Assembly (NCBI GenBank): GCA_037142675.1 | Contig: JBAXAF010000004.1 | Coordinates: 326-64,325 of the forward strand | Length of the DNA: 64,000 bases | Source of the DNA: Candidatus Berkelbacteria bacterium | GTDB taxonomy: Bacteria; Patescibacteriota; UBA1384; XYA2-FULL-43-10; CAINNR01 | Direction of reading: 5' to 3' | Part shown: positions 7,994-38,897 of the stretch, piece by piece | Position numbering within the stretch: the stretch's first letter is position 1 | Layout of the letters: every line of letters starts with the position of its first letter | Translations under genes and position numbers: made by a program | The notes under the pieces: generated by a model | The model's input: only the letters and a program-made list of their open reading frames with translations | Databases searched by the model: none | Told to the model about the DNA's origin: nothing

Positions 7994-9190
7994 GTGAGAA
8001 AGATGGCAAAAAAGACCGTGAGGTATTACCTGTTGTTGTCGTTGCTCTACCGATTTTCCAATACCTGCTTTGCCGCGACCTATGTAACATTTCTAATGAG
8101 CAGGGGAGGACTAAACCTGTTTCAGGTTAATATGGTCAATTTCATCTTCTTTGCGACGATGTTTTTGACCGAAATCCCGACCGGCGCCGTGGCCGACTGT
8201 TTCGGTCGCAAGCTGTCTTTTCTTATCTCTTGCTCGATTAACTGTGTTTCGTTGCTGGTGTATGCCCTGTCGCACACCTTCACTGGCTTTGCCACCGCCG
8301 AGGCAATGGGCGCAGTTGGGTCAACATTCTCGTCAGGCGCATTTCAGGCCTGGGTGGTTGATTCTCTTAACCACCACGGCTACCAGGAGGACTTTGGCAA
8401 GCTGTTCGCTCGCCAAAACCAGTTGGGCAACTTGGTCGGTATGGGTGCCGCCATCATTGGTGCACACCTGGCAACTATAAACCCGGCTTTCCCTTGGTTT
8501 CTGTCGGCTGCGTTTGTCTTCGCCACTGGTGTTGTCGCAATCTTTGTTATGAGGGAGGACTACCGGGAAAAAAGCAGTATCAATTTGTTGGCGACAGCCA
8601 AAGAGTTCGGCCGCAAGTTTGTGGTTAGCGCCCAAACAATCCGTGCTGGTGGGCCAGTAACACTAATGATGTTACTTGGACTGGTCTATTCCATTGGAGT
8701 CCAAGCCCCCAACATGCAGTGGCAGCCGTATTTCCGTAAGCACTTCGCCTCGGAAGCTGAATTGGGTTATTTGTGGGCTGGTGTCTCATTGGCGATCATC
8801 ATTGGCTCACAAATGTCAGCCATGATGCGTCGTGGGCCTGCGTTCGAGCGACTAGCGTTGATAGGAACCCAGGTTTCTATTGGCCTATTCATCGCGCTAG
8901 CGGGGATACAGTCGCCGTGGATGTTATCTGTTTTGTTTTACCTCATCCACGAGGCTGGGCGTGGGATGTTTTCACCGCTTAAGGATGCGTATCTCAACGA
9001 TGCCATCCAAAAGGAGGAGCGGGCAACCCTACTTTCCTGTGGTTCAATCTCTAGCCACATCGGTTCAATGGTTGGGCTAGTGATGTCTGGTCTTATGGCC
9101 AACAGGCTCTCAATCGCTCCCACCTGGATAGTGTCAGGGATTTTCCTTGTCGTCGGGACACTCGCAGTGTCTCGAATCAAGCGCACATGA
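7994..9190 (+). CDS. MFS-family transporter (cassette D)
   Basis: 398 aa, about 12 TM helices; GRK motif in loop 2-3; terminator gcggtctgc...gcagaccgc plus T-run at 9195-9228. Confidence 0.75.
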   Translation: MRKMAKKTVRYYLLLSLLYRFSNTCFAATYVTFLMSRGGLNLFQVNMVNFIFFATMFLTEIPTGAVADCFGRKLSFLISCSINCVSLLVYALSHTFTGFATAEAMGAVGSTFSSGAFQAWVVDSLNHHGYQEDFGKLFARQNQLGNLVGMGAAIIGAHLATINPAFPWFLSAAFVFATGVVAIFVMREDYREKSSINLLATAKEFGRKFVVSAQTIRAGGPVTLMMLLGLVYSIGVQAPNMQWQPYFRKHFASEAELGYLWAGVSLAIIIGSQMSAMMRRGPAFERLALIGTQVSIGLFIALAGIQSPWMLSVLFYLIHEAGRGMFSPLKDAYLNDAIQKEERATLLSCGSISSHIGSMVGLVMSGLMANRLSIAPTWIVSGIFLVVGTLAVSRIKRT

Positions 9191-9234
9191 CTCAGGCGGT
9201 CTGCTCCTCGCAGACCGCTTTTTTTGTCCCAAAT

Positions 9235-9990
9235 TTAGCCTTCGCCGACTTTTGCCTCGGTGGATTTCTCCCACAATAGAGTGTGGAAAATTTTCATTGC
9301 CTCGTATAGTTCTTTACTCTTAATAAGCATGCCAAAGTTCTCTTTTTGCGTGCTAAAAACACTAAGTTTTCCTGTGTCGTAGATTCCAATTCCAACCTCA
9401 ATTCTCATCCCATCTGGTCCCCATCGCAACTCTCGCAAGTACTCCAAGCCGTGTGATGATGTTTCATAGTTAATATCTGTATCTTTGTATCGAATAGTTT
9501 TGATAAATATTCCCTTTTCAATTCGAGCTTTGTCGATCTCGGCGATTGATCGTACCCCGCCAATCATTTGAGTTGCGCTCCCTGGCCAAATGTAGAGTGC
9601 CTCTTTTTTGCACTTCAACTCCTCGCGGATAACATTGCGCACCTGATCTGGCCCCTCAAAATAACTGACGCGTGGTTTGTGTGGGGTTAGATTAAATAAG
9701 TCTATAAAAGCCGGCAAACTATCTTTTAGTTTTGCCAATCTTTCATTCTCGAGCTCAATCAGGCGTTCTGGCGACTCAGCTTTGTAATTCATTCGGCCGT
9801 TTTTCTCGAACTTTGATATCAAACCCAGTTCAACTAGGTGATCAATAAAGTAATAAATTGATGTTCGTTTAATGCCGGCACGAGCAGCGATTGGAGTAAT
9901 GGTTGAACTGCCAAGCTCCAAAATAGCCAAGTAGACCTTGGCTTCCTTCTCGTCCAACCCAAATTTTACTAGTGTGTCCTCTTTGTTCAT
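9235..9990 (-). CDS. TrmB-family HTH regulator (paralog 2)
   Basis: FGLDEKEAKVYLAILELGSSTITPIAARAGIKRTSIYYFIDHL; start chosen at MNKEDTL (RBS gagga); ORF-track N-terminal 25 aa are GC-rich and atypical. Confidence 0.75.
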   Translation of the reverse strand: MNKEDTLVKFGLDEKEAKVYLAILELGSSTITPIAARAGIKRTSIYYFIDHLVELGLISKFEKNGRMNYKAESPERLIELENERLAKLKDSLPAFIDLFNLTPHKPRVSYFEGPDQVRNVIREELKCKKEALYIWPGSATQMIGGVRSIAEIDKARIEKGIFIKTIRYKDTDINYETSSHGLEYLRELRWGPDGMRIEVGIGIYDTGKLSVFSTQKENFGMLIKSKELYEAMKIFHTLLWEKSTEAKVGEG

Positions 9991-10156
9991 TCCTGTCATC
10001 CTCGGGCTTGCCTGCCCGCCTTTGGAGGGACCCGGGGATCCATTAATAGTTAAGACTTCGCACATATCGTCTAAAAAATCGTCGATAACACATTAATTCT
10101 AGCATAATTGGCACAAATTAGTCAAGTATTATTTGTCTAAATCATTGTCTAATATA

Positions 10157-10185
10157 TTGACAATATGCCAAATCAGTGATACAAT
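10157..10185 (+). promoter_or_regulatory. Consensus sigma70 promoter TTGACA-17-TACAAT
   Basis: ttgacaatatgccaaatcagtgatacaat. Confidence 0.65.
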
Positions 10186-10271
10186 GTGTTGTTACGATCG
10201 AAGTGGCAAACAAGCCAATCGCTCGTAAGGCAGATTACAACTTACGCCGGCGGGCTAACGCTAGGAATGAA

Positions 10272-10694
10272 ATGGATAACGATATTTGCGACTTTGGCTG
10301 TCCTGACGCCGTTGAGAACATCGCATTCAGTGGAAACACGTATTACGGCTTTGCTCGTTACGAAATCGCCACCGAGACCCGCGGGGGCATTCCTTACAAG
10401 ACTGAGGTTCGCGTCAACTATTTCCCCGTTGTTGATGGGCGCGTTCGGGTAGTAGATGTGGTTTTGATGCGATTCACCTGGGAGTCGTTTTACAAGACGC
10501 ATACGGTCGATGAAGCGCTGAAATCCAATTGGCCAGAAATATTGGCCGAGATGATCGCGGAGTCGCTGCCGGTTCGCATCGAGGAATTCTGCATCGCACG
10601 GCGCAAGAGTAGTGATCAGATGATACAGAATTTTAAGGAATGGCTGAAGTGTGAAAAGGGAATTGAGCTTTCGGAAGACCGCTCTGAACCGTAG
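10272..10694 (+). CDS. GC-rich hypothetical protein (operon E, gene 1)
   Basis: Start MDNDICDF with RBS aggaa; the ORF-track start 10176 would lie inside the promoter. Confidence 0.55.
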   Translation: MDNDICDFGCPDAVENIAFSGNTYYGFARYEIATETRGGIPYKTEVRVNYFPVVDGRVRVVDVVLMRFTWESFYKTHTVDEALKSNWPEILAEMIAESLPVRIEEFCIARRKSSDQMIQNFKEWLKCEKGIELSEDRSEP

Positions 10695-10719
10695 CAGGTT
10701 CGGAGCCGTTTCCGAGGGA
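10668..10719 (+). repeat. 52-nt hairpin-containing direct repeat, copy 1 (overlaps the 3' end of gene 1)
   Basis: ctttcggaagaccgctctgaaccgtagcaggttcggagccgtttccgaggga; about 92% identical to 11137-11188. Confidence 0.8.
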
Positions 10720-10756
10720 AATCAAGTGCTGGCGAGCCAAAACGCAAGGAAATAAC

Positions 10757-11131
10757 ATGAGTGGTACAGTTGACGATTTGATGGCAGCGCTTCGGATGAT
10801 CGACAGTCACTCGCAGCAGCTTGATGAAGAAAAAGAGACCCTGGCGTTGGCGCGGCGTGTCATCTCCGATCGTCACTTCCGGCAGCTGGTTCAGCGGCTG
10901 GAAACCGATCGGGTTGGATTGGCACGCGAGATCCTCGAAGCCGAGCAGATCCGCATCGACAACACCCCGATCGAAGATCTGTCGCTGTCGGTTCGGACAT
11001 ACAACGGCTTGAAGAAGAGTGGTATCAACACCCTCGGAGAGCTGGCTGAGTGCACGAAGGAGAAGTTGGCAGGCATCCGCAACTGGGGCCGCCGCTGCCA
11101 GGAAGAAGTAGATGAGATTCTGAAGAAATAG
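10757..11131 (+). CDS. Standalone RNA polymerase alpha-subunit C-terminal-domain-like protein
   Basis: IEDLSLSVRTYNGLKKSGINTLGELAECTKEKLAGIRNWGRRCQEEVDEILKK resembles the RpoA alpha-CTD helix-hairpin-helix. Confidence 0.6.
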   Translation: MSGTVDDLMAALRMIDSHSQQLDEEKETLALARRVISDRHFRQLVQRLETDRVGLAREILEAEQIRIDNTPIEDLSLSVRTYNGLKKSGINTLGELAECTKEKLAGIRNWGRRCQEEVDEILKK

Positions 11132-11136
11132 GAGTG

Positions 11137-11188
11137 CTTTCGGACGACCGCTCTGAACTGTAACAGGTTCGGAGCCGTTTCCGAGGGA
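11137..11188 (+). repeat. 52-nt direct repeat, copy 2
   Basis: ctttcggacgaccgctctgaactgtaacaggttcggagccgtttccgaggga. Confidence 0.8.
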
Positions 11189-11214
11189 GATAATCAGAAA
11201 GGTGGTTATGAAGT

Positions 11215-11625
11215 ATGTACATGTACCCTTTTGCATGGAGTGGCCAGGTATATAATCTGGGCGAAGGCGATGTCCAGATGCTGGTTGAGTTGTTGTGTGC
11301 AGGCCTAGACAAGGTGCTTGTAAACAACGATTACGAAGATGGCTCCAGGAAAGTGCGAATCTCGACTCACGACTATAAAAAGGCTAAATTCAACGACAAG
11401 CTGATCGAGCTCGAGTATACACTTCCCTGCAGGCATTTGCTTGTAGGACTGGGAAGTGGAGATTACCCGCGCTCCTTGCATCTTCCGCAAGCAATCGGTG
11501 GGGGGACCCTCGTCCGTAAGTCTCACGAGCCTGGCAAACCTATATACGTATGTCAGTTGGACATTGGAGACAGAAAGATAGAGCTGAAGGTGTGTTTCGT
11601 TGTGACTGAAGACAAGTTGAGATAG
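11215..11625 (+). CDS. GC-rich hypothetical protein (operon E, gene 3)
   Basis: RBS aaaggtgg; terminator ctccgggtcgtgattgattcggag plus T-run at 11660-11690. Confidence 0.55.
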   Translation: MYMYPFAWSGQVYNLGEGDVQMLVELLCAGLDKVLVNNDYEDGSRKVRISTHDYKKAKFNDKLIELEYTLPCRHLLVGLGSGDYPRSLHLPQAIGGGTLVRKSHEPGKPIYVCQLDIGDRKIELKVCFVVTEDKLR

Positions 11626-11750: not shown

Positions 11751-12104
11751 TTGGCAATGTTAAACAATATCAACCGCCTGCGGAAGGCGGGGGAAATCCA
11801 AAAAGTATTCAAATTCGGCAAATCAATACGGTCTGCTAATTTTTCTATTCGCTATAATCCGAACCGCGCAAGCAATAATCGCTTCGCTGTTGTTGTTGGC
11901 ACAAAGGTGGACAAGCGAGCAACTCGCAGAAACGCTATAAAACGGCTTGTAAGAGAAGTTATTCGCTTAAATATACAATCTATCCCGACAAGCTTTGATA
12001 TTGTTCTCACGGCTCACAAACTAGCAAATTGGCCGATAAAACTGGTCGATGTCCAGCCAGAATTAACAGAACTGTTAAAACAAATTCGAAACTCTAAATC
12101 CTAA
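11751..12104 (+). CDS. rnpA: RNase P protein component
   Basis: 117 aa with conserved FAVVVGTKVDKRATRRNAIKRLVRE. Confidence 0.9.
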   Translation: MAMLNNINRLRKAGEIQKVFKFGKSIRSANFSIRYNPNRASNNRFAVVVGTKVDKRATRRNAIKRLVREVIRLNIQSIPTSFDIVLTAHKLANWPIKLVDVQPELTELLKQIRNSKS

Positions 12105-12205
12105 ATCCTAAACAAATCCAAATGATCCAATTTTCAAATATTTTAAACATTAAGACATTTGAATTTTGATATTGTTTAGAAATTAGATATTAGAATTTAG
12201 AAATT
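12095..12205. repeat. AT-rich palindromic intergenic repeat (family member)
   Basis: Nearly identical to 20583-20690: ...caaatgatccaattttcaaatattttaaacattaagacatttgaattttgatattgtttag... Confidence 0.7.
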
Positions 12206-12448
12206 ATGAAAAAAATCTTAATAAAAATCATTGAATTTTATCAGCGAACACTTTCGCCTGATCATGGATTTTTTTCATATAAATATCCAGCAGGATATTG
12301 CAAATATCATCCTGATTGCTCTGAATATTGTAAGCAGGCAATAGAGAAAAAAGGCGCTGTGAGGGGGATTGCGCTCGGAGCGTGGCGTGTGCTACGATGT
12401 AATCCATGGAGTTCTGGGGGGTACGATCCGGTGAATCATGAATCATGA
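12206..12448 (+). CDS. yidD: Membrane protein insertion efficiency factor YidD
   Basis: 80 aa, cysteine-rich YidD fold. Confidence 0.85.
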   Translation: MKKILIKIIEFYQRTLSPDHGFFSYKYPAGYCKYHPDCSEYCKQAIEKKGAVRGIALGAWRVLRCNPWSSGGYDPVNHES

Positions 12449-12509
12449 ATTGTGAATAATGGGCTCAAAACCATAATTCTTAATTCATAATTCTTAATTC
12501 AAGGAAAAA

Positions 12510-13382
12510 ATGTCTGCATTTTTCACAACCATCTTGTTTGTCCCGATCTATAACATGCTAATGTACTTGGTTGCCGTTATCCCTGGCCATCAAGTGGCAC
12601 TGGCTATTATCTTGCTAACTATTATCATTCGTCTGGTTCTTTTGCCATCTTCAATCAAGGCATCAAAATCTACAATTGAAATGCAGAAGATTCAACCACT
12701 ATTGAATGCTGTTCGGGCCAAATACAAGGGTGATCAGCTGAAAATGTCACAAGAAATGCAACGCCTGTTCAAGGAGCACAAGGTTTCGCCGTATGGAAGT
12801 TGTTTGCCACTAATTGTGCAGATGGTTGTACTTGTAGTTTTTTATCGGGTAATATTGATTGGTTTCAGCGCTGGCCACTTTAATCTCCTTTACTCATTTA
12901 TTCCCAAGCCTTCAGAGATTAATCTTGCCTTCTTTGGCATTGATGTTTCCAAGCCAGATCTGTGGGTTCTGCCAATTCTAGCTGGCGCGCTGCAGTTTGT
13001 TCAGACAAAAATGATGCCGCAGCCACCGCAATCAAAAGGTTCGAATGATCCAGCTGCAATGATGAACAAGCAAATAATCTATTTTTTGCCCTTGATTACA
13101 ATCTTCATCGGTCGTGCGCTTCCTGCGGGCCTGGCACTTTATTGGGTTCTAACATCCGTGGTTATGATTTTTCAGCAGTGGTATGTCAATAATCAATTTA
13201 AACTTGGTTTCTGGGGTAAGTTCCCTAATGTGCCAATTGCAGAGCTTCCTGAATACACCATAGATGATAAATCATCAGCCAAAGGCACTGAACTACACCC
13301 AGAACATGAAAAAATTATTCAGGCCGACGAAAAAAAGATCCGAGCTAAAGGCGTTGAGATTACAGTTCGAAAACGCAAGTAA
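12510..13382 (+). CDS. yidC: Membrane protein insertase YidC
   Basis: 290 aa, multi-TM; synteny rnpA-yidD-yidC. Confidence 0.88.
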   Translation: MSAFFTTILFVPIYNMLMYLVAVIPGHQVALAIILLTIIIRLVLLPSSIKASKSTIEMQKIQPLLNAVRAKYKGDQLKMSQEMQRLFKEHKVSPYGSCLPLIVQMVVLVVFYRVILIGFSAGHFNLLYSFIPKPSEINLAFFGIDVSKPDLWVLPILAGALQFVQTKMMPQPPQSKGSNDPAAMMNKQIIYFLPLITIFIGRALPAGLALYWVLTSVVMIFQQWYVNNQFKLGFWGKFPNVPIAELPEYTIDDKSSAKGTELHPEHEKIIQADEKKIRAKGVEITVRKRK

Positions 13383-13473: not shown

Positions 13474-13752
13474 TTGAGCTATGATTCAAGCGTCATGAAA
13501 TATTTTGTCTACATGCTAGAGAATCAAAAAGGAAGACATTATATTGGAATAACAACTGATTTGGAACGCAGACTGGCCGAACATAATATTAATGGCGCCA
13601 AATCGACAAAGCCATTTGGACCGTGGAAAATGATTTATTCTGAGCAATTTGATTCCAGATCAGAGGCTTGCAAACGAGAGTGGCATTTAAAAAATTCACC
13701 AGGAAAGAAAGAAAAATCCGATATTATTAAACAATACGGAGAGGTCGCATAG
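13474..13752 (+). CDS. GIY-YIG domain nuclease (UPF0213-like)
   Basis: YFVYMLENQKGRHYIGITTDLERRLAEHN. Confidence 0.75.
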   Translation: MSYDSSVMKYFVYMLENQKGRHYIGITTDLERRLAEHNINGAKSTKPFGPWKMIYSEQFDSRSEACKREWHLKNSPGKKEKSDIIKQYGEVA

Positions 13753-13828
13753 TTGGTCTAGTGCGCTTGTTTCGAAAACAAGTAGGGCTGCAAGGCTCTC
13801 GCGAGTTCGAATCTCGCCCTCTCCGCCA
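13738..13828 (+). tRNA. tRNA-Ser (anticodon CGA)
   Basis: ggagaggtcgcatagttggtctagtgcgc...ttcgaaa anticodon loop, long variable arm, gagttcgaatctcgc T-arm, CCA encoded; overlaps the last 15 nt of the upstream ORF. Confidence 0.8.
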
Positions 13829-13888: not shown

Positions 13889-14203
13889 ATGTTTGATAAA
13901 GCAGTAGAATTTGAAAAACTAATTGAATATCAAGAAGGTGTTGTTGCAAGTCGAACTATCATCGACAAAAAAGCCGGTACGGTAACAGTGTTTGCTTTTG
14001 ATAAGGGTCAAGGGCTTTCCGAGCATATCGCGCCGTACGATGCCCTAGTTTATGCACTAGATGGTGAGGCTGAAATAATTGTTTCCGGCGAAAAACAACA
14101 GCTAGCAAAGGGTGAGATGTTGATAATGCCAGCTGGATCGCCTCATTCTCTGAAAGCTGCCGAGAAATTCAAAATGGTTTTAGTAATGATACGAGAGAAA
14201 TAA
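13889..14203 (+). CDS. Cupin-domain protein
   Basis: 104 aa small beta-barrel cupin pattern. Confidence 0.65.
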   Translation: MFDKAVEFEKLIEYQEGVVASRTIIDKKAGTVTVFAFDKGQGLSEHIAPYDALVYALDGEAEIIVSGEKQQLAKGEMLIMPAGSPHSLKAAEKFKMVLVMIREK

Positions 14204-14206: not shown

Positions 14207-15358
14207 ATGAAATTTCCTAAAAACTTTCTTTTTGGATCGGCGACCTCGGCTCATCAAATTGAAGGCCATTTAAATAACGATTGGGCACGCTGGGAAAAAA
14301 CTCCTGGCCATATTTCCGATGGCACAACGTCCGAAACTGGTGCTGATAGTTGGAATAAGTGGCGAGATGATATTCGGCTGCTTAATAATACCTCTCAGAA
14401 TGCCTACAGATTTTCCATTGAATGGTCACGAATTGAGCCAGAAGAAGGTATGTTTGATGAAGACGCTACCCAGCATTACCGGGAAATTATCAACGAGCTA
14501 AATAAGAATAATATCACCCCAATGGTGACACTTTTCCATTTCACCTGTCCACTTTGGCTTGACGATATTGGCGGTGTTGCCAGCAGAAAATTCGCCCGGT
14601 ATTTTGCTCGCTTTGCCGGCAGGATGGCGAAAGAATTCGGCCACAAGGTTGATCTCTGGTCGGTGATTAATGAACCCAGTGTATATGTTAACGCCGGCTA
14701 CATTATTGGTCATTGGTACCCGGGCAAGCGCAACATTATTGGTGGGGTCAAGGCATTTTTTCACCTTGTTTCTGCTCACAAACAAGCGTACATAAGCATG
14801 AAGAATGCTAACCCGAGGGTCAAGGTAGGAATTGCTATGAATATGACTGCATTTGCACCAGTTAAAAACACTTGGTGCAACCGTGTTCTAACGAGGGTAG
14901 CAAAATGGTTGGTAAATGAATATTCAATAAATTTGGTTCGCAAAAACCTCGACTTTCTCGGCATAAATCATTATATGTCACACAAAATTCAATGCAAAAA
15001 ACCAGTCATGTTTGACGAGGGTGGAGTTAAAAGCGAATATGGCTGGAGCGTTCACCCAGAAGGACTCTATCAAGTAATAATGGAAGCCAAGCACTGGAAG
15101 CTGCCAATCTACATTACAGAGAACGGCACGGCTGATTCATCTGATAAATTGCGACAATCATTCATCACCAATTTTTTAGAAAAATGCTCCAAAGCCATTG
15201 CTGATGGCGCCGACCTTCGAGGCTACTTTCACTGGTCCCTGATTGACAATTTTGAATGGGCGAGCGGATATTCGATGAAATTTGGCCTGCACACCATAGA
15301 CAGAAAACCCCGCAAATCGGCGGAGATTTATAAGAAAATTATAGAAAGTTCTAGATAA
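14207..15358 (+). CDS. GH1-family beta-glucosidase-like glycoside hydrolase
   Basis: FLFGSATSAHQIEG N-terminal signature and ITENG catalytic motif. Confidence 0.8.
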   Translation: MKFPKNFLFGSATSAHQIEGHLNNDWARWEKTPGHISDGTTSETGADSWNKWRDDIRLLNNTSQNAYRFSIEWSRIEPEEGMFDEDATQHYREIINELNKNNITPMVTLFHFTCPLWLDDIGGVASRKFARYFARFAGRMAKEFGHKVDLWSVINEPSVYVNAGYIIGHWYPGKRNIIGGVKAFFHLVSAHKQAYISMKNANPRVKVGIAMNMTAFAPVKNTWCNRVLTRVAKWLVNEYSINLVRKNLDFLGINHYMSHKIQCKKPVMFDEGGVKSEYGWSVHPEGLYQVIMEAKHWKLPIYITENGTADSSDKLRQSFITNFLEKCSKAIADGADLRGYFHWSLIDNFEWASGYSMKFGLHTIDRKPRKSAEIYKKIIESSR

Positions 15359-15367
15359 ATTTTGAAT

Positions 15368-15400
15368 AAAAAAGCCCTGGCGTGACAACAACCAGGGTGG
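15368..15400. terminator. Bidirectional intrinsic terminator
   Basis: aaaaaagccctggcgtgacaacaaccaggg; T-run on the minus strand. Confidence 0.65.
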
Positions 15401-15423
15401 GCACTCTTGGCTTTCGAACCAGG

Positions 15424-16293
15424 TCAGGCAGACCTGACCGTGGCAGCATCCTCGGGCTGGCCAATGATCTGGCGGTACTTGTCGCGTAGCTCCGGCGACA
15501 ACCTCTCTGTCATGCTGATAGCGTCTCGACGGCCGCACAGGCTATCGTGGTGAGTGATGTGGGCGGCAACCAGTTTTTCGACTGCCGCCTCACGTTTGGC
15601 CGGTGGGAAGAGCGGGATCATGCACTCGGCATAATCGAGCCGGTAACTGGCGCTGCATGCTTCGTGGAAAAGCGCACGAAGACGCTTCTGGTCTCTAATG
15701 AAACCGAGCTCGGAGCTGAAACCGTTGACATCGCGGTAGGTGTACTGCGATCGGTGATGTTCAGCCGGGTGCATATCCATCTCGAGCAGGGAGAAGAACA
15801 GCCTCTCAAATGCTGCGTGTCGCAACCGCTTCGAGTCGATGGCGCGGATCGACCGCAGTGTTTCTTCGACGTTCCAGAAGCCATACCGGCAAAGCTGCAC
15901 GTTGGCGGCGTCACGGTCCTTTTTTGGGAGACCGACGATTGCTTTTCGCACTATGCGAATGTCGGAGTTCCGACGTGCGAGGTACTTCGGCATCCAGGTC
16001 ATAACCTCGTCGGTGTTCAGGTGACGACCAACGACCTCGAGATCGCGAAGCATGCCGTCGTAGTTGTAGCCATTTTCAACCACAATGGCTACAACTTTGC
16101 CTGCCTGCCCAGGTTGGAGCTCCTTTGGCAGTAGCGGAATGGCGGTGATGAGCGCAATCCTGAGCTGTTGGTGGCTGATCATCTTATCGATGACACCTGT
16201 TACCAGCTCCACCTTTCGCTCGGCGCTCATGTCTTGGAAGCAGTAGCTTAGCTGGCGCTCATATTCGTCCCCCCCAGATGTGGCTGACGGCAC
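15424..16293 (-). CDS. GC-rich hypothetical protein (island F)
   Basis: 289 aa; overlaps the upstream gene by 35 nt. Confidence 0.55.
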   Translation of the reverse strand: MPSATSGGDEYERQLSYCFQDMSAERKVELVTGVIDKMISHQQLRIALITAIPLLPKELQPGQAGKVVAIVVENGYNYDGMLRDLEVVGRHLNTDEVMTWMPKYLARRNSDIRIVRKAIVGLPKKDRDAANVQLCRYGFWNVEETLRSIRAIDSKRLRHAAFERLFFSLLEMDMHPAEHHRSQYTYRDVNGFSSELGFIRDQKRLRALFHEACSASYRLDYAECMIPLFPPAKREAAVEKLVAAHITHHDSLCGRRDAISMTERLSPELRDKYRQIIGQPEDAATVRSA

Positions 16294-16798
16294 AGTTGTA
16301 CCTGGCCATGACTAAGCAATGCAGCCGGTCTTCTGAGCGGTATTTGCTATTGGTCAGGCTTGAAGCATCCCTGGCCTGGTAATCGTAGCCGCCGAGGATA
16401 GTCAGCTCGTGAATTCGTCTTCCGACCTGTTTGCGCAGATGTTTTGTTTCGATCTTCCGGCACCAGTTGATCGCCGCCCAGAGTAGGGCCGCTGATCTGT
16501 GGTTATCGCTGCAAATTTCGACCTCAGCGATAAACTGGTTACAGGCTGCAAGTCGAAGATTATCAGCCTTGTCGCCGAGAAGTGCAGCAATTCTTGAGAG
16601 TGATTGCTCGGACTGGTGGATAGTGCGCCCGGTCATCCCGCCACCAGGTGTGATAATCACCATCCAGTGGATTAAGGACTTGGCGCATACCATCAACTGG
16701 TGATAAGTCAGACTGTGTCCGAGTTGGGTCACCAGGGTCACGGCCGCGTCAATATCACCAGCGATGATCAGAGCAGACAACAATTGCAAGGATCTCAT
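16259..16798 (-). CDS. GC-rich hypothetical protein (island F)
   Basis: 179 aa; RBS gagagg; minus-strand promoter TTGATT-17-TATAAC at about 16842-16870. Confidence 0.55.
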   Translation of the reverse strand: MRSLQLLSALIIAGDIDAAVTLVTQLGHSLTYHQLMVCAKSLIHWMVIITPGGGMTGRTIHQSEQSLSRIAALLGDKADNLRLAACNQFIAEVEICSDNHRSAALLWAAINWCRKIETKHLRKQVGRRIHELTILGGYDYQARDASSLTNSKYRSEDRLHCLVMARYNCAVSHIWGGRI

Positions 16799-16919
16799 TG
16801 TAGGTTCCTCTCACAAATCGGGTTGATTGTGAAACACCTAAGTTATATCAGCAAGCAATATTTTAATCAAATTTAATAAAAAAAACGCGGCGAAGGAACT
16901 CGCCGCGTGTACTCTTTGC

Positions 16920-18578
16920 TCAGATGTATCCGCTTTTTAGCCGGAAGTACATTCTGGCACTCACGTAACGGAAGAGGCGGACAGCTCGCGCCAGCCTGAC
17001 TCGTTGTGACGGTGAACTCATCAGAAATCCTGCTACTGCATGCTCGTCTTCGGCTGTTGCCAGCTTTTCGATGGCGTAGGCATGCAGCCCCTTTGGATGT
17101 ATGGGGTAGAGCCACTTGCTTTTGAAACAAATAGCTTCGGTGATGATTGGAATATAAGCTGGCGCAAGCTCAGATTGCCGGCTTATTTTGATGCCTGTGA
17201 CTGTCGGCATCAGCCCATGCCAGTTGATTGAACGGACGACCCAGTCGCGCTCATTGGCGCTGACGTTATCCAGTAACCCAGCCAGCAGGACAGGACCAAT
17301 ACGCTGGATGGCGGCGCGGTACTCGACTTCTGACGCGCCTTTGCAGAATGTCATTGCGGCGCCAACATGTTCGGCCCCAAATCGGCGTTCAAGAGCCCCA
17401 AAACTCATTGTGTGTGCCAAAGGCTTCAGCATTGCCGGCACAATCAGCGGGTTTCTGGACAACTCTGGAATGATCTCCTGTTCGGGACCGAAGATTCCCA
17501 TTTGTGGGTACCTTGGCAAAAGCAATTCTTGGGTCGCCATCCGCGCTTCTGACCGGTCGATGCGATTGCAGTTTCTGATCACCTCGCCAGCATCAACTTC
17601 TTCCAGTGCAACCGCCCAGAGGATGATCATCTTGCCGCCTTGATTCCCCCGATAGAGCGCATCAGGTGCGCCCATCTCGAAGGCCTCGACTACCCAGTGT
17701 CTGTCTGTCGGCGACCTCCATGTCTGGATGGCTTCTTGCAGTTCTCTCTCCTCAATCGACTCGATCTCGTTTTGTTTTGACAGCGCCAAGATCGCCGACA
17801 CCTCGGTTACCGTGCCGCGCCGGCCAAGTAATACCGAAATGACGGGAAGCAGGAAACCAGCCATTGGGAGACCGTGGTTTGCTACCAGGTTCGCAGCCTC
17901 GTGAATAAGTAGCGGCTGTCGTCCCCGACGATCGATCGTCTCTGCCTCGTAGAAAAGGCTAATGATCTGCCGTTCGTCCAGCCCTTCTACCCGAAATCGG
18001 CTGGCAAGCGCAGAGATGTAATCGTAGCCGAGCTCGGCGGTGTGGTAGCCCCACCAGAACCGGTCTTGAGCGTGTTCGTATTGTGGGTCATGATACTCTG
18101 GCAGTACGCCACGTCGGGAGGTCTCAGAAGGTGGAGGAGCCAAGTCCATGCCCATTTTGATCTCGGCTAGCCCGAACTTGACCGCTCCATCGATGTAGGA
18201 AGTCAGTCGGTTCGTGCCATAAGGATATTCCATATGTAGCACAAACTCGGTGGTCTCGCAGACCAGGTCGTAATTTCCGGCCTTAATCTGCCTGCCAATC
18301 TTCACCGAACAGTAATCATCAAGCGCAAGTTTGAACTTCGCCTGATACTCTATTAGCCTGGCCAGTGTTGGGTAGCCAATACGGGCAGCAATGTGCTTGA
18401 GCAGTTTGACGTATGCCCAAAGGCGCACATCTCCCTTTTCGGTGGTCACTTCGCACTCGTCATCACACTTTGTGACCTTTGGCTGAAGGCGTCGGACCTG
18501 CTGCAAGAGCTTCAAGCTCTCCAACAGAAACGGCTCAAGTTTGCCACTAATCTCCAAAAGTGCAACCCATGGTCTCAT
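16920..18578 (-). CDS. GC-rich large hypothetical protein (island F)
   Basis: 552 aa; minus promoter TTGACA-16-TAAGAT at 18609-18636; terminator cgcggcgaaggaactcgccgcg at 16888-16910. Confidence 0.6.
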   Translation of the reverse strand: MRPWVALLEISGKLEPFLLESLKLLQQVRRLQPKVTKCDDECEVTTEKGDVRLWAYVKLLKHIAARIGYPTLARLIEYQAKFKLALDDYCSVKIGRQIKAGNYDLVCETTEFVLHMEYPYGTNRLTSYIDGAVKFGLAEIKMGMDLAPPPSETSRRGVLPEYHDPQYEHAQDRFWWGYHTAELGYDYISALASRFRVEGLDERQIISLFYEAETIDRRGRQPLLIHEAANLVANHGLPMAGFLLPVISVLLGRRGTVTEVSAILALSKQNEIESIEERELQEAIQTWRSPTDRHWVVEAFEMGAPDALYRGNQGGKMIILWAVALEEVDAGEVIRNCNRIDRSEARMATQELLLPRYPQMGIFGPEQEIIPELSRNPLIVPAMLKPLAHTMSFGALERRFGAEHVGAAMTFCKGASEVEYRAAIQRIGPVLLAGLLDNVSANERDWVVRSINWHGLMPTVTGIKISRQSELAPAYIPIITEAICFKSKWLYPIHPKGLHAYAIEKLATAEDEHAVAGFLMSSPSQRVRLARAVRLFRYVSARMYFRLKSGYI

Positions 18579-18684
18579 GGTTGGCCTCTATTCTTGAGTA
18601 TCGCACTCATCTTAGCTCATGATTGTTTTATGTCAATAAAAAAAGGCGGGTATTAGCCGCCGTTAGTATTTGTGCAAGCCAACT

Positions 18685-19503
18685 CTACTGTTGGCGTGGG
18701 TCCCTGACAGGCATGACTCCTTGGTTTGACAGACCGTGGTCTACAGTGTGGACCAGCGGGGAGCCGCCGGAGAGCGGTGACATGAGCCATGCGATATGGT
18801 TGGCCACGTCTTCAGCCTTGGTGTTCACCCCTAATGGAACGGCGTGTGGCACGGCCTCGTATAATGAGCCGAAGTTCTTAACTCCCTTCGCCGCGATGGT
18901 GTTGATCGGCCCAGCGTCCAGCAGGTGGATGCGCACATTGGACTTTCCCATGTCGCCGGCAAGGTAGAGCGCTATTGAATCCAGTAGAGATTTGGCACTC
19001 GCCATTTGCCAGTAGTCCTCGATGTACTTCTCGGCACCCAGGAGGAAAGTCATCGCCACTCCCACAGCACCGTCGTTTAGCCGCCGGCCGAACCCCATGG
19101 CACCTGGGCAGAGTAAGGCTTTCGACATCCAGTGGAAGGAAAGGGCATTGAGACTGAGTGTCTCGATCCATTCCTCGGTGGTCATTGAGAGGAAGTTTCG
19201 TCCTTCCTGCTGAATGCTTGCAGGAGCAGCAGCCACGCTGTGGAGGTATCCATCAAGCATGATCCCTCTGTCTTGCAGTTCGCAGCGCAGGCGGACAAAA
19301 TCATCCTCGATCGAGAAATCACACGGGAGGATGATCTCGCCATCCTGGCGGAATTTTTCCGCTCTTTCAACAATGCTCGGATGGCATGTGATTACGGGCC
19401 TTCCTCCGTGGTTGCGAACTGCTTCAACGGTAGCCGTTCCGATGCCGCCGCGTAGGCCGACGCCGGAAACAAGTATGGTTCGTCCTTCAAGTAATCGTGA
19501 CAC
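18685..19503 (-). CDS. FabI-like enoyl-ACP reductase / SDR family (island F)
   Basis: ILVSGVGLRGGIG...Y-x6-K (YWQMASAKSLLD)...DAGPINTIAAKG...VDHG aligns with FabI; GTG start with RBS aagaggtg; promoter TTGACA-18-TATTTT at 19550-19579. Confidence 0.7.
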   Translation of the reverse strand: MSRLLEGRTILVSGVGLRGGIGTATVEAVRNHGGRPVITCHPSIVERAEKFRQDGEIILPCDFSIEDDFVRLRCELQDRGIMLDGYLHSVAAAPASIQQEGRNFLSMTTEEWIETLSLNALSFHWMSKALLCPGAMGFGRRLNDGAVGVAMTFLLGAEKYIEDYWQMASAKSLLDSIALYLAGDMGKSNVRIHLLDAGPINTIAAKGVKNFGSLYEAVPHAVPLGVNTKAEDVANHIAWLMSPLSGGSPLVHTVDHGLSNQGVMPVRDPRQQ

Positions 19504-19667
19504 TAGAAAGCACCTCTTTGGGTTGCTGGTTTTATGGGTCTGCAAGAAGGAAAATACCATTTTTTATTATTGATGTCAATGACATCCAGGGCGGTAGAAC
19601 TAATATCTGACCAATCTGATAATTTTTGTGGTAAAATAGATCTAAATATTAAGGAGGAGGAAATATT

Positions 19668-20597
19668 ATGAAGTGGAAAGAGATTTTGCTAAAAGCGTTC
19701 GAGTACATTAAAAAGTACCGCGCGTTGTGGTATTTGGGTATTTTGGCAGCTCTGACTGAAGGTGGGTCCGGCAGCAATTTTTCCAGCATGAAAAATTCTA
19801 CAAGCGGGAATTCTGGTGGTTTAACTGACACAATGCAGTCATCACTACTCCGGGCCTCTGATTGGGTCTCTAATAATCAGACCGAGGTTATTGTTATTTT
19901 TCTAGCTTTTGTTCTAATTTCATTAATTATTCTCTACATTTCCTATTCGGCACGAGCTGGACTCATCCATTCAATAGACAAGGCGGAATCTGGTGGCAAA
20001 AAACCAGAGTTCCACGAAGCATTTCATGCCGGACAAAAATATTTTTGGCGTTTTCTTGGCTTATCTCTTTTAATGGCTTTGATGATTTTTGCCGTTGCCT
20101 TTGTTTTGGTCGGCCTAATAGCGATTTTTATCATTTTAGTTGCAGCTGTTAGCATGTGGTTCTTAATTGTGGCGATTCCAGTGGGGCTGTTGCTTGTTTT
20201 TGGAATTGTTCTTTTGGCGGTTTATCTTGGCTGGATATTGCAGCTAGCCTTCAGGGAGGTTGTTATTAAAGAAAAAAGCATTTCAGCAGCTTTCACCGGT
20301 GCCAGAGAGCTTATTCATCATAATTTCACAAATGTTGTTTTGGCATGGTTGATACAGGCAGCTGTCAATTTAGTTGCCGGAATTGCCATGGCAATTGTAG
20401 TTTTGGTCATTGGTGGAGCATTATTTGCCATTGGGGTTGGAATTTATTTCGCCGGCGGGTTATCTGCCGTTCTGGCCTATGGGTCCATTGCGATCATATT
20501 ATTTATTGCCCTAGCATTATTTATCAGTGGTATTATTGCTGCTTACATTTCAACTTACTGGACAATTGTGTATAAAAATCTAAGCACGAAATCCTAA
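19668..20597 (+). CDS. Hypothetical multi-TM membrane protein (native)
   Basis: RBS aaggaggagg; 309 aa, hydrophobic. Confidence 0.65.
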   Translation: MKWKEILLKAFEYIKKYRALWYLGILAALTEGGSGSNFSSMKNSTSGNSGGLTDTMQSSLLRASDWVSNNQTEVIVIFLAFVLISLIILYISYSARAGLIHSIDKAESGGKKPEFHEAFHAGQKYFWRFLGLSLLMALMIFAVAFVLVGLIAIFIILVAAVSMWFLIVAIPVGLLLVFGIVLLAVYLGWILQLAFREVVIKEKSISAAFTGARELIHHNFTNVVLAWLIQAAVNLVAGIAMAIVVLVIGGALFAIGVGIYFAGGLSAVLAYGSIAIILFIALALFISGIIAAYISTYWTIVYKNLSTKS

Positions 20598-20690
20598 ATT
20601 CTAAACAAACCCAAATGATCAAATTTTCAAATATTTTAAACATTAAGACATTTGAGTTTTGATATTGTTTAGATATTAGAATTTAGAAAT
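20583..20690. repeat. AT-rich palindromic intergenic repeat (family member)
   Basis: Near copy of 12095-12205. Confidence 0.7.
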
Positions 20691-20705
20691 TTCCCCGGAG
20701 GGGAC

Positions 20706-22355
20706 ATGGTCGACATTGATCAAAAATTATTTAACTTGCGGCGGCAAGACGAAGAGGAGCTAACTCAAGCTTTGGCCGCTCGGCTTGGAATGGGTTACGT
20801 CGACATGGTCGGCTATCCTTTTGCGCCCGAGCTTTACATGTTGTTCCCGGCCGAAATAATGCTTCAATATGCCTTTGTCCCATATCTTAAAATCGGCAAA
20901 GAGATTAAGCTTGCCATTACAAATAGTTTAAACGATCGGTTGAAGAATTATTTAAATGAATATTCTCAGGCCAATAACACTAAGTTTGCCTTTTCGATAG
21001 TTTCTAAAACTGGCTTGCTCTATACTGTTGACTATTTTACCAAGCAGCAGGCCGAATTACAGAAAAAAAACCTGGCTATTTCTCAGCACCAAGAAGACCT
21101 AATTGACAAGGTTAGAACAGTGGCCGATATCGCCGAGGCAGCCAAAAGAGTCACAACCACTGAGCTGCTTGATTTGGTTCTAGTTTCAGCGGCGAAGATG
21201 AACGCATCAGATATTCATATTGAACCAGGGGAGGCAGATTTTCTTGTTCGTTTTCGAGTTGATGGTGTTTTGCAAGATGTCCTTAGGGCGAACTTGTCAG
21301 CATACAAATTTTTACTATCTCGAATTAAATTTTTAGCCAAACTGAAAATGGACGTAATGGTTGAGCCACAAGATGGCCGGTTCACCATTAAGCATGGATC
21401 AAGTGAAGTGGATTTGCGTGTGTCTACCTTACCTTCGGCTTACGGCGAAAGCATTGTTCTGCGTCTTTTGGGCCAAGAAATGTCAATTAAAAAATTAACT
21501 GATTTGGGCTTTCGCCCTGACGCACTGAAAATTATTAAAGATGCAATTTCCAAGCCACATGGGATGATATTAAATACAGGTCCGACTGGTTCTGGTAAAT
21601 CTACCACGCTCTATGCAGTAATTATGGAATTAAAAAAACCCGGAATCAAGATTATTTCACTCGAAGATCCTATTGAGTACCGGATATCGGGTGTTGAGCA
21701 AAGTCAGGTGGATCCTGAGGCCGGGTATACTTTTGCAGATGGTCTGCGAGCCGCCCTGCGCCAAGATCCGGACATTCTAATGGTTGGCGAGATACGCGAC
21801 AAGGAAACGGCTGAAATTGGCGTCCAGGCAGCTCTGACGGGCCACTTACTACTTTCAACTCTCCACTCAAATACTGCTGCTGCCGCATTACCGCGTCTTT
21901 TGGAAATTGGTGTCCGGCCATTTCTCTTGGCTGGTTCAATAAATTTAATTATGGGCCAGCGCCTAGTTCGGAGAATCTGTAAGTCATGTGCGCAACAATT
22001 TACTCCCACTGAACCAGTTTGGGAAGAGATACGAAATATACTTGTGCCAATTAAGGATCGGATAGAGCCACAAATTGCAGCTATGCTTGATTTGCCCATT
22101 GCCCAAGTTAAACTTAAACGCGGCATTGGCTGCCCAGCTTGCAATAAATCCGGATATTCTGGTCGTCAAGTCATTGTCGAGGTTTTGGTGCCAACTCCTG
22201 CTATGGAGGCTTTAATTGGCCGAGAAGCCACAATTGCCGAGTTTACAAAAACAGCCCTGACAGAAGGCCTAATTACCATGGAGCAAGATGGTTTGATTCA
22301 GGTTCTAAAAGGAGTTACAACTACAACTGAAGTTTGGCGAGTCACAAAAGATTAA
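20706..22355 (+). CDS. pilB: Type IV pilus / type II secretion assembly ATPase (PilB/GspE family)
   Basis: GPTGSGKSTTLYA Walker A, Asp box, CxxC...CxxC C-terminal motifs. Confidence 0.85.
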   Translation: MVDIDQKLFNLRRQDEEELTQALAARLGMGYVDMVGYPFAPELYMLFPAEIMLQYAFVPYLKIGKEIKLAITNSLNDRLKNYLNEYSQANNTKFAFSIVSKTGLLYTVDYFTKQQAELQKKNLAISQHQEDLIDKVRTVADIAEAAKRVTTTELLDLVLVSAAKMNASDIHIEPGEADFLVRFRVDGVLQDVLRANLSAYKFLLSRIKFLAKLKMDVMVEPQDGRFTIKHGSSEVDLRVSTLPSAYGESIVLRLLGQEMSIKKLTDLGFRPDALKIIKDAISKPHGMILNTGPTGSGKSTTLYAVIMELKKPGIKIISLEDPIEYRISGVEQSQVDPEAGYTFADGLRAALRQDPDILMVGEIRDKETAEIGVQAALTGHLLLSTLHSNTAAAALPRLLEIGVRPFLLAGSINLIMGQRLVRRICKSCAQQFTPTEPVWEEIRNILVPIKDRIEPQIAAMLDLPIAQVKLKRGIGCPACNKSGYSGRQVIVEVLVPTPAMEALIGREATIAEFTKTALTEGLITMEQDGLIQVLKGVTTTTEVWRVTKD

Positions 22356-22387
22356 ATAGCTATTATTTTGAATCGAGTGTCAGGTAC

Positions 22388-22416
22388 TTGATTTTTTATT
22401 TGTTTTGTGCTATAAT
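22388..22416 (+). promoter_or_regulatory. Consensus promoter TTGATT-17-TATAAT
   Basis: ttgattttttatttgttttgtgctataat. Confidence 0.6.
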
Positions 22417-22496
22417 GAAATGTTCCAGGGCGAGAGACAGTCTGTCTTTATGACCCCTCAGAGAACATCGTGTCGTGCATAAGGAGAGTGGAGAGC

Positions 22497-23051
22497 ATGC
22501 GCTCTATCACTGCTAGCTTGATTGTTCTGATTCTCGTTGCGAGCATCGCTTTCGCGCAGGGCAAGGACGCCAGGCGCCAGCGACCGCCGAACCCACAACA
22601 GGCGTTCCAGCGGGGACAGACCTGTAACACGCCGCAACAGCGGCGCCTGCAGCCCCATCGGCAGTACGACGCTCCTCGCCGCAACGACCGCGACCACGGA
22701 CGCCGCCCGATCACATTGGGCAGCATCCTCCACGACATCTTCAGCTCGCCTGTCGTCATCGTGGACGAGCGGCCAGACTACTATCCGCAGGTTTGCCAAA
22801 CGTCGCGCGTCGCAAAGGTTGTCGATGTGGACGGCGAAAATGTGTATGTGAACGCGCCGTTTGCAGTTGGTAGCCGAGTCCTTGATGTGTCATGGGTTCT
22901 CGACCCGGTGACAGACAGGAGAATATGTCGAAAAACCGACGCGACGCTAGTTGTTGTCGCATCAGATGGCCACAGATCTTCGCTCTGTCGGGTCATAAGT
23001 ACGGAGCCATGGTGCTTCGTCGCCCCGGGAGACGAAATAGTAGTACGCTAG
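22497..23051 (+). CDS. GC-rich small secreted protein (cassette G)
   Basis: MRSITASLIVLILVASIAFAQG signal peptide; RBS aaggagag; terminator gtgtctggcaatgaaattgccagacac at 23065-23100. Confidence 0.55.
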   Translation: MRSITASLIVLILVASIAFAQGKDARRQRPPNPQQAFQRGQTCNTPQQRRLQPHRQYDAPRRNDRDHGRRPITLGSILHDIFSSPVVIVDERPDYYPQVCQTSRVAKVVDVDGENVYVNAPFAVGSRVLDVSWVLDPVTDRRICRKTDATLVVVASDGHRSSLCRVISTEPWCFVAPGDEIVVR

Positions 23052-23210
23052 CTTGATTGTTCACGGTGTCTGGCAATGAAATTGCCAGACACCATTTTTA
23101 TTGGTTAATTTGAAACTAAAGTAACAAAAAAACCGCCCAGCATACTGCAGAAATTGCAATATGACCAAGGCGGTTTAATTTGTAACTCGAGAATCGTCAG
23201 TGCTAGAGAG

Positions 23211-23549
23211 CTATTTGACTGTTCCCTGTTGGATGCCTGTTCCAAGACCAACGGCGACTCTGGCAATGTAGTATGCGAGTATAATAATTATTATGCCGAT
23301 AATAGCGTTAATCACACCTTGCTGTCCCTTTTTAGCTGAATCCGGGTTGCCAGCAGCAGTAATGTAGAGAATACCTGAATAAATTAAATATGCAATTGCT
23401 AAAATTCCGGCAATCAATAAAACAAAATTAATAACAGTATTTGCAATGCTGGAGATTTGAGTACTGCCACCTGTTTGAGCAGGTTTAAGGAAATTAAATG
23501 TAGCAGCATGCGCTTTTGGCATTAACCAATTTGTAATCGTCGAAATCAT
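23211..23549 (-). CDS. Pilin-like small membrane protein with the Y-I-T-A-x-G-(N/D) C-terminal hairpin motif
   Basis: Signal/TM, ...LYITAAGNPDSAKKGQQGV..., second TM. Confidence 0.6.
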   Translation of the reverse strand: MISTITNWLMPKAHAATFNFLKPAQTGGSTQISSIANTVINFVLLIAGILAIAYLIYSGILYITAAGNPDSAKKGQQGVINAIIGIIIIILAYYIARVAVGLGTGIQQGTVK

Positions 23550-29689: not shown

Positions 29690-29810
29690 AAATGACTAAT
29701 ATCTAATTACTAATTCCTAATAAAATGCTCAATGCTCAAATGTCTAATTTTGGAATTTGATATTTGGAATTTGTTTAGAAATTAGAAATTAGGATTTAGA
29801 AATTGATTTT
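29690..29810. repeat. AT-rich intergenic repeat (family member)
   Basis: ...ttggaatttgatatttggaatttgtttagaaattagaaattaggatttagaaatt. Confidence 0.5.
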
Positions 29811-38880: not shown

Positions 38881-38897
38881 GGATTTGTTTTATTTTT

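Follow-up and report, generated by a model that had tools for sequence, protein, structure and literature searches.

A GC-rich island with a divergent FabI-type reductase in Candidatus Berkelbacteria is probably an old and eroding accessory locus

What is a relative of the enoyl-acyl carrier protein (ACP) reductase FabI doing in a Candidate Phyla Radiation (CPR) genome, and is it a recent arrival? The question is raised by a 64-kb stretch of a Candidatus Berkelbacteria genome (hereafter the window), which contains on its minus strand (15368-19579) a GC-rich island that includes a gene for a FabI-like short-chain dehydrogenase/reductase (SDR). Patescibacteria are reported to be without fatty-acid synthesis, probably re-using lipids of the host instead (PMC12455944, PMC7242380), and some CPR have a partial type II fatty-acid synthesis (FAS II) with the ACP machinery missing (PMC7242380). 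The matter bears on how CPR/Patescibacteria make and maintain their membranes without this synthesis. Our literature searches on FabI or enoyl-ACP reductase in these bacteria gave no relevant report.

A sequence-only reading of this DNA had proposed that the island holds a foreign FabI, either a triclosan-type resistance determinant or part of an acquired pathway with its neighbors. That reading is partly supported. It was right that the protein is FabI-like, of non-host composition and out of context, and wrong on recent import, resistance and pathway. With moderate confidence we consider that this is probably a lineage-restricted, old and eroding modular accessory island, carrying a divergent FabI-type reductase and two ORFans of which one is frameshifted. 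The FabI family itself is known; what is new is a very divergent, very rare member of it.

The island and its three units

The island comprises ~4.1 kb with three promoter/open reading frame (ORF)/terminator units, all on the minus strand. The G+C content is 52-59% from ~15400 to 19450, and 35-45% on either side. Four minus-strand ORFs are present where the sequence-only reading had placed them, encoding 289 aa (15424-16293), 179 aa (16259-16798), 552 aa (16920-18578) and 291 aa (18685-19560). Their G+C content at third codon positions (GC3) is 0.60-0.69. This is 6.8-9.4 SD above the mean of an AT-class reference of 34 window genes with GC3 = 0.382±0.032 (mean, sd), and agrees with the earlier description of the island as GC-rich.

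The SDR unit begins with a promoter-like site P1 (19551-19579, minus strand), having TTGACA (19579-19574), a 17-nt spacer and a TG-extended TATTTT (19556-19551). It is ~97% identical in the relative L005 (Berkelbacteria ELA704). The unit ends in an intrinsic terminator T1 (18638-18661, minus strand) of sequence GGCGG-CTAATAC-CCGCC followed by T7, which occurs once in the window. T1 is identical in L005 (27/27) and near-identical in the relatives L002 and L009, despite the saturated divergence of the SDR coding sequences. It is directly abutted by the promoter-like site P2 of the 552-aa unit (TTGACA-16-TAAGAT; 18609-18636, minus strand), and T1 plus the ATTGAC of the following promoter is kept in the window, L005, L002 and L009. 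The 552-aa unit ends in the intrinsic terminator T2 (16877-16908, minus strand), with a 10-bp GC stem, a UUCC loop and U8. It has a folding energy of -18.1 kcal/mol (z = -4.3; 0/200 shuffles were as stable), and is homologous to the terminator downstream of a 381-aa gene in L002. The third unit has a weaker promoter-like site P3 (TTGATT-17-TATAAC; 16842-16870, minus strand), followed by GAGAGGAA and ATG 16798; P3 was read by eye and falls below the rules of the promoter scanner. Its terminator T3 (~15368-15397, minus strand) is a CCCUGG/CCAGGG hairpin followed by C and U6, with a fold z of only -1.5, and is convergent with a glycoside hydrolase family 1 (GH1) glycosidase gene ending at 15358.

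Three units each with a promoter and a terminator had been claimed before, and these we find; the further claim of a TTGACA-type promoter in each needs correction, a perfect hexamer being present in two of the three. The function of P1, P3 and T3 is putative. Scanning gave seven promoter-like sites (3.4±1.7 expected) and eight terminator-like sites (4.6±2.1 expected). The excess is statistically modest, yet the sites fall exactly at the gene borders. We suggest that the island would consist of three self-contained monocistronic modules, in each of which an ORF with a Shine-Dalgarno site is preceded by a sigma-70-like promoter and followed by an intrinsic terminator.

The overlapping 179-aa and 289-aa ORFs were initially regarded as two products. 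Both ORFs exist, but they are the N- and C-terminal halves of one frameshifted gene (15424-16798, minus strand) that would encode 458 aa if intact. Aligned end to end, they cover residues 1-175 and 175-446 of one 458-aa protein encoded by L002. The gene is split by a +1 frameshift at a G7 homopolymer (16269-16275, minus strand; C7 on the plus strand), with the switch of frame falling between ...SHIWG and GDEYERQ.... One G less would give ...HIWGDEYERQ..., matching ...HEIWGEGFKEQ... of L002. The tract is the sole G/C run of seven or more in the 64 kb, and L002 reads TGGGGAGAAGG there. An identical 552-aa gene is found on six contigs, and the split and the G7 length are the same among the contigs listed. 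As these come from other assemblies, the split is not a one-off assembly error. Nonsynonymous differences (pN) are far below synonymous differences (pS) in both halves, so the break is recent or reversible. We scanned a metagenome-contig collection, one without the known JGI contig, for variants in the length of the G run and for relatives of the 552-aa protein, and found neither. For annotation, the hypothetical pair should be treated as one frameshifted gene.

The AlphaFold2 model of an intact homologue of the 458-aa protein has pLDDT = 80 and consists entirely of helical repeats, i.e. an alpha solenoid. Foldseek returned generic tetratricopeptide-repeat and designed-repeat matches with TM < 0.3, and a word-indexed search with the intact 458-aa protein found the query itself only. 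The 552-aa protein is an ORFan with three known family members, and has no match in Pfam, NCBIfam, PADLOC, PHROGs or the PDB. Its homologues are 78% and 58% identical, with dN/dS = 0.06-0.15. It is predicted to be all-helical; an AlphaFold2 model based on a three-sequence alignment has pLDDT = 46 and is unusable. Profile searches of the PDB with the 552-aa and 458-aa families revealed no relationship, and profile-profile comparison indicates that the two families are unrelated to each other. PADLOC gave no match with E<0.01 for the SDR, 552-, 458-, 381- and 87-aa proteins (the last from L002) and five other GC-rich ORFans. Ten island and other GC-rich proteins compared with PHROGs gave only a generic FabG-like match for the SDR. 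We can only say that the 552-aa and 458-aa proteins, as all-alpha and alpha-solenoid modules respectively, would work independently of the SDR.

The island lies in a metagenome-assembled genome and has sharp compositional borders, as might arise if GC-rich pieces of another organism had been mis-joined into the contig. Yet the same joins are present in contigs listed from different assemblies with the identical 552-aa gene and neighbors, equivalent islands lie within the same flanks in independent samples, and the host flank runs on unbroken into the promoter region, with 97% identity to a relative. We regard the probability of such a chimera as practically nil.

The FabI-type reductase

The 291-aa ORF is an over-extended reading of the SDR gene. 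The -10 hexamer of P1 lies inside this ORF, the homologues begin at GTG 19503, and another gene call gives 272 aa. We have therefore taken the start to be GTG 19503, with GAGGTG 7 nt upstream, giving a gene for 272 aa at 18685-19503 on the minus strand.

The protein matches the Pfam family adh_short_C2 (PF13561) with E = 9.4e-35 over residues 35-277, and has the dinucleotide-binding glycine motif GVGLRGGIG near its N-terminus. Its top NCBIfam models are all FabI, the best at 103.7 bits vs a cut-off of 440. Across all 13 FabI and InhA models the scores are 62-104 bits vs cut-offs of 299-477; the InhA model scores 69 bits, and FabL, FabG and other SDRs score <45 bits. The best matches in the PDB are FabIs at 1e-28. 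FabI models and structures are thus the top matches by a clear margin, and the protein was correctly described as FabI-like. It scores three- to fourfold under every curated FabI equivalog cut-off, and therefore lies outside all curated FabI families. In annotation, the name FabI should be carried over only after a test.

The catalytic segment YWQMASAK aligns with YNVMGLAK of E. coli FabI (Y156/K163), and the Tyr and Lys of Tyr-x6-Lys are invariant across all members of the SDR clade. The motifs named in the sequence-only reading, i.e. the glycine-rich site, Tyr-x6-Lys and AGPINT, are all present. The equivalents of Met159 and Phe203 of E. coli FabI are kept, and the substrate-binding loop of AGPI(R/N)T type reads AGPINTIAAKGV vs AGPIRTLAASGI in E. 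coli FabI. The substitutions relative to E. coli FabI are Tyr146 to Phe, Gly93 to Ala and Phe94 to Ala. The clade has its own invariant segments CHP, PCDFS, SFHW and VAMTF, and a C-terminal tail G-x-x-P-V-x-D-x-R. Against its homologues the gene has pN far below pS.

A further difference concerns Lys201, Arg204 and Lys205 of E. coli FabI, which we take to be the basic patch that docks ACP. The window protein has K/G/S at these positions. Other clade members have K or P at 201, S, M or N at 204 and S, A or K at 205, mostly Pro/x/Ala. By homology the enzyme is presumably NAD(P)H-dependent, with the C2=C3 double bond of a trans-2-enoyl thioester as the most likely site of reduction. To assume such a hydride transfer seems reasonable, but ACP as the acyl carrier is doubtful. 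Given that most of the docking residues are missing and the gene stands alone, we infer that the substrate is a scavenged or non-ACP-bound enoyl compound. The first module would then be a 272-aa FabI-type enzyme that does not perform the last step of FAS II. Such a stand-alone reductase can be cloned, and is a concrete candidate for an enzyme that works on acyl chains taken up by scavenging.

The FAS II genes fabD/H/F/G/Z, acpP and acpS, other ACP genes and Pls genes were all absent among the ~45 Pfam-scanned ORFs of the window, in agreement with the earlier remark that the FabI is out of context. Nor were FAS II genes found on the contigs of relatives (17 kb for L005, 23 kb for the contig of L003). 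The gene might nevertheless have a housekeeping role, as the native FabI of a complete FAS II whose other genes lie elsewhere in the genome, and its intact catalytic residues and purifying selection would suit that role. We consider this highly improbable. The SDR scores ~100 bits vs equivalog cut-offs of 299-477, has a non-host composition, has lost conservation of the ACP-docking residues, and is absent from the same slot in the relative L008. Moreover, its occurrence in only 2 of 185,579 species representatives means that most relatives manage without it.

That figure comes from a scan of the contigs of GTDB species representatives with six query sequences. Among 5.8 billion proteins, word-indexed searching revealed six clusters of SDR homologues with 50-100% identity, the next match being at 31%; the two clusters with a source name are from Patescibacteria and Berkelbacteria. 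Exhaustive HMMER searching of 1.84 billion cluster representatives returned one sequence with E<1e-30, from its own clade, and the next was 36% identical at 120 bits. Of the matches that follow, those with names are FabIs with 29-36% identity, from Leptospirillum, Dehalococcoidia and a louse endosymbiont. No relative of the SDR or of the 552-aa protein turned up in scans of viral contigs. To judge from its sequence relatives, the SDR clade appears to be endemic to a narrow CPR group. Its rarity means that it cannot be a general solution to the problem of making membranes.

These searches bear directly on the idea of a foreign FabI with a nearest donor, which they do not support. Beyond the small clade the relatives are remote and taxonomically scattered, so that no donor can be named. 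Every close homologue has a context of the Patescibacteria/Berkelbacteria type, and four lie in the same genomic slot. A recently imported FabI conferring triclosan-type resistance, i.e. resistance to FabI inhibitors, is very unlikely in our view. The GC-rich composition and the closeness to FabI, the nearest known family, would suit such a determinant. At the residue equivalent to E. coli Gly93, whose substitution makes for triclosan resistance, the SDR has Ala, and the structure of the G93A mutant (3pjd) scores slightly above the wild type; this substitution is the sole specific pointer. Against it, nearest proteins outside the clade are scattered at 29-36% identity with no donor among them, and several related genomes have equally GC-rich homologues in this slot. 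A cell would profit from a resistant FabI only if it depended on FAS II, and there would be no target, with FAS II genes missing from the window and the phylum reported to be without the pathway (PMC12455944). A survey of resistance-like genes in CPR makes no mention of FabI or triclosan.

The slot in relatives and the GC-rich genes of the window

The island occupies a variable slot between two conserved blocks, one comprising the ATPase of a type II secretion system (T2SS) or type IV pilus (T4P) plus DUF7544, the other the GH1 gene. Contexts were compared for every homologue. The fullest version is that of L002, with the order SDR-552-87-458-381-GH1. The window has DUF7544, then SDR-552-458 with the last frameshifted, then GH1. 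In L009 a DUF7544-like gene is followed by the SDR and a 90-aa homologue of the 87-aa gene, at which point the contig ends. L008 has the 552-aa gene alone between DUF7544 and GH1, and L005 has the SDR alone. In L003 and L012 the SDR is found at another place, adjoining a NUDIX gene. Wherever the slot genes occur the order is colinear. The lone genes are intact and under purifying selection, with dN/dS ~0.06 for the 552-aa gene of the window compared with L008. The colinear order and lone surviving genes lead us to propose an old modular island that is losing and reshuffling modules, and not an operon or pathway. An ancestral island SDR-552-87-458-381 would have been eroded differently in each lineage.

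This distribution largely refutes a three-gene acquired pathway or operon uniting the SDR with the 552-aa and 458-aa proteins, and leaves it barely credible. It is true that the window and L002 share the order SDR-552-(87)-458, with the T1/P2 junction kept in both. However, examination for co-transcription revealed a terminator plus a promoter between each pair of genes. The SDR persists alone in L005 and beside NUDIX in L003 and L012, and the 552-aa gene alone in L008, all of them intact. In addition, the 458-aa gene is frameshifted in the window, and no relationship links the 552-aa protein with the 458-aa protein, or either of them with an enzyme family.

The region 15.3-19.7 kb contains no integrase or transposase, and there is no repeat family at its borders. 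The nearest tRNA gene is tRNA-Ser (13738-13828), 1.5 kb away beyond GH1. An integron-like array was another possibility that we discarded; promoters are present in all modules, the hairpins between them are unrelated GC stems with T runs and hence terminators, T1 is unique and there is no integrase.

The divergence of the SDR is out of keeping with that of its flanks. Between the window and L005 the amino acid identity is 97% for the T2SS ATPase, 95% for YidC and 90% for DUF7544 and GH1, and the flanking genes have dS = 0.55-0.83 and dN = 0.02-0.05. But the SDR proteins are only 51% identical, with dS ~2.9 (saturated) and dN = 0.49. The nucleotide identity is 90-100% across the divergent-promoter region and 5'UTR, drops from the SDR start codon onward (0.83, 0.67, 0.63, 0.53), and is 0.33-0.7 within the gene. 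The window SDR is nearest to that of L009 (68%), though the flanks of L009 are only 46-76% identical. The T2SS ATPase groups the window with L005 and L008 with L009, while the SDR groups the window with L009. Accelerated protein evolution was rejected as the origin of the ~50% identity, since synonymous sites are saturated in the SDR and not in the flanks. This saturation requires either in-situ allele replacement or the differential loss of ancient paralogues. Together the sequence comparisons point to in-situ displacement of the SDR coding sequence with promoter and terminator unchanged. In at least one lineage the coding sequence would have been swapped for a deeply diverged allele.

Variable content of this kind between conserved core genes, near pilin and secretion-ATPase genes, could also suggest a diversifying hot spot, i.e. 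a conflict or host-interaction island with a role in phage defence, inter-bacterial competition or host attachment. The SDR would then be a nucleotide-cofactor-dependent effector, the 552-aa and solenoid proteins sensors or adaptors, and the G7 tract a phase-variation switch. The restriction of the displacement to the SDR coding sequence fits such a role, as do the ORFan nature of the accessory genes, the frameshift in the only G/C homopolymer of seven or more in the 64 kb, and a slot following the T2SS ATPase that also has differing GC-rich ORFans in the window and L008. We consider it possible but unlikely. No PADLOC, PHROGs or Pfam defence-domain match was obtained, not even a weak one. The low dN/dS values of 0.06-0.29 suggest that the alleles separated long ago under purifying, not positive, selection. 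The G7 tract is short and seen in one genome only, a relative is without it, and no length variants were found in the metagenome-contig collection.

The composition of the island is shared by other genes of the window. Twelve of the 46 genes examined form a GC-rich class with GC3 = 0.52-0.70, scattered over 7-38 kb in at least eight GC-rich accessory patches of which the island is the largest. They encode more Arg and less Lys and Ile than AT-class genes. The others are at 7081-7674, 7994-9190, 10176-10694, 22470-23051, 30707-31555, 32494-33270, 33331-34137 and 36514-37995, and there is a further patch of 56% G+C at 4.65-6.1 kb. Except for a major facilitator superfamily (MFS) transporter, a ParA-like ATPase and a DnaA-like protein, they are ORFans that match nothing in Pfam, PADLOC or PHROGs. 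The beginning of the window is the replication-origin region, and about one quarter of the coding DNA near the origin consists of GC-rich accessory genes. GC-richness would be common to a whole accessory class of the genome, and would not mark recent import. All six SDR alleles have GC3 = 0.64-0.76 within AT-rich contexts, and their synonymous sites are mutually saturated. If confirmed at population scale this would bear on the flexible gene pool of streamlined symbionts and on GC-biased gene conversion, which has been proposed for bacteria (PMC4450053).

Several points weigh against an old, eroding modular island. Divergence in AT-rich hosts should have erased the GC excess of the SDR alleles. 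Its persistence fits better with an unsampled GC-rich reservoir, for which another lineage or an extrachromosomal element is a candidate, with GC-biased gene conversion, or with selection on composition. The direction of events is a matter of interpretation, as repeated gains in the same order might give the pattern as well as losses from an ancestral five-gene island. The differential loss of ancient tandem paralogues could mimic displacement. A FAS II set elsewhere is possible, given that our view covers 64 kb of the genome. The model of the 552-aa protein failed and the fold match of the 458-aa model is generic. Lastly, the enzymatic role is putative and rests on homology.

Some of these observations could be combined into an undescribed class of GC-rich promoter-ORF-terminator modules in AT-rich Berkelbacteria. 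The modules would be exchanged via conserved borders, i.e. the start region, the terminator and the next promoter, would play a role in host or phage conflict, and would keep their composition by biased gene conversion or selection; they would include a re-purposed FabI and a solenoid switched by poly-G. We think this speculative and rather improbable.

The second DnaA-like gene of the window (36514-37995, plus strand) is GC-rich (GC3 = 0.64) and without the N-terminal domain. The native AT-rich dnaA (2431-3882, minus strand) has DnaA_N and lies beside dnaN (891-1997) at the minimum of cumulative GC skew. GC-richness as a trait of some core genes was rejected, as it is the second gene that is GC-rich, the native dnaA and dnaN both being AT-rich. 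This second gene lies 3 kb from the GC-rich ParA-like gene (32494-33270), and the two may be what is left of a replicon or of an integrated element.

Next to the island, the interval from the T2SS ATPase to the pilin genes is a second slot of variable content, which in the window contains a GC-rich 193-aa ORFan (22470-23051, GC3 = 0.67). The gap is 910 nt in the window (22355-23265) and 116 nt in L005, and L008 has a different GC-rich ORF of 152 aa. Amid AT-rich NUDIX and core genes, L003 has a GC-rich 213-aa ORF plus a radical-SAM gene at 8166-10132 (GC3 = 0.60-0.65), and L012 a GC-rich 312-aa ORF at 726-1664 (GC3 = 0.69). The window also encodes five paralogous TrmB-family helix-turn-helix proteins of 244-276 aa (6119-6907, 9235-10065, 31690-32442, 34315-35094 and 56194-56928). 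All are AT-rich, and four directly adjoin GC-rich ORFans.

On one side of the island are yidC, a GIY-YIG gene, tRNA-Ser, a cupin gene and the GH1 gene (14207-15358); on the far side are DUF7544 (19668-20597), the T2SS/T4P ATPase (20706-22355) and pilin genes. The cupin gene (13889-14203) encodes 104 aa, and L005 has instead a 236-aa alpha/beta-hydrolase gene (12074-12784). A 469-aa ORF (27263-28672, minus strand) is AT-rich, has no Pfam match and is strongly diverged, with 67% nucleotide identity to the SBP_bac_1 gene at the same position of L005 while its neighbors have 77-92%. An AT-rich palindromic element of ~125 nt with arms CTAAATTCTAAAC.../...GTTTAGAATTTAG is dispersed through intergenic regions. 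Copies are found at 763-892, 12076-12205, 20574-20691, 38757-38892 and 42105-42242, and half copies at 29750-29810, 35795-35856 and 40925-40983. It forms a long imperfect hairpin (z = -2.5 to -3.9), occurs at the same place in L005 and has no Rfam match. An exact 65-nt direct repeat (49297-49361 and 50833-50897) duplicates the L19 gene's end together with the terminator, the duplicate lying behind a 472-aa ORF (49430-50848) without a Pfam match. A 56-nt direct repeat of 93% identity (10667-10722 and 11136-11191, 469 nt spacing) lies in or near overlapping ORFs at 10176-10694 (plus strand) and 10616-11236 (minus strand).

Comparison with known systems

FabI of E. coli (PDB 1qsg, 8jtp; NCBIfam PRK06997, PRK07984) shares with the SDR the adh_short_C2 fold, Tyr-x6-Lys, the Met159 and Phe203 positions and the loop. 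The SDR differs in having just 29-36% identity, no FAS II neighbors, a stand-alone unit, a GC-rich composition and allele displacement. It resembles InhA, the mycobacterial FAS II enoyl-ACP reductase, in Tyr-x6-Lys and in the Phe at the position of Tyr146, which presumably corresponds to InhA Phe149. But the InhA match of 69 bits vs a cut-off of 430 is weaker than that to FabI, and the SDR has no mycolate or FAS II context.

Patescibacteria genomes have many genomic islands, exchanged mostly within the phylum (PMC12455944). Our island is like these in being compositionally deviant accessory DNA with relatives only in other Patescibacteria. It is unlike them in having single-gene modules without an integrase, transposase, direct repeats or adjacent tRNA, and in a GC-richness that persists across alleles with saturated synonymous sites.

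In the phase-variable genes of Neisseria, Haemophilus and Campylobacter an intragenic poly-G tract sets the frame of an accessory gene, as the G7 tract would in the 458-aa gene. Here, however, the tract is only 7 nt, is seen in one genome and is missing from the L002 homologue.

The closest parallel to the displacement indicated by our comparisons is in-situ xenologous gene displacement, a concept reportedly due to Omelchenko, Koonin and colleagues. In both a distant homologue of the same family would replace a gene with the context left intact. The case described here differs in that the exchange is bounded by the start-codon region of the SDR and its terminator, and both alleles belong to one tiny clade.

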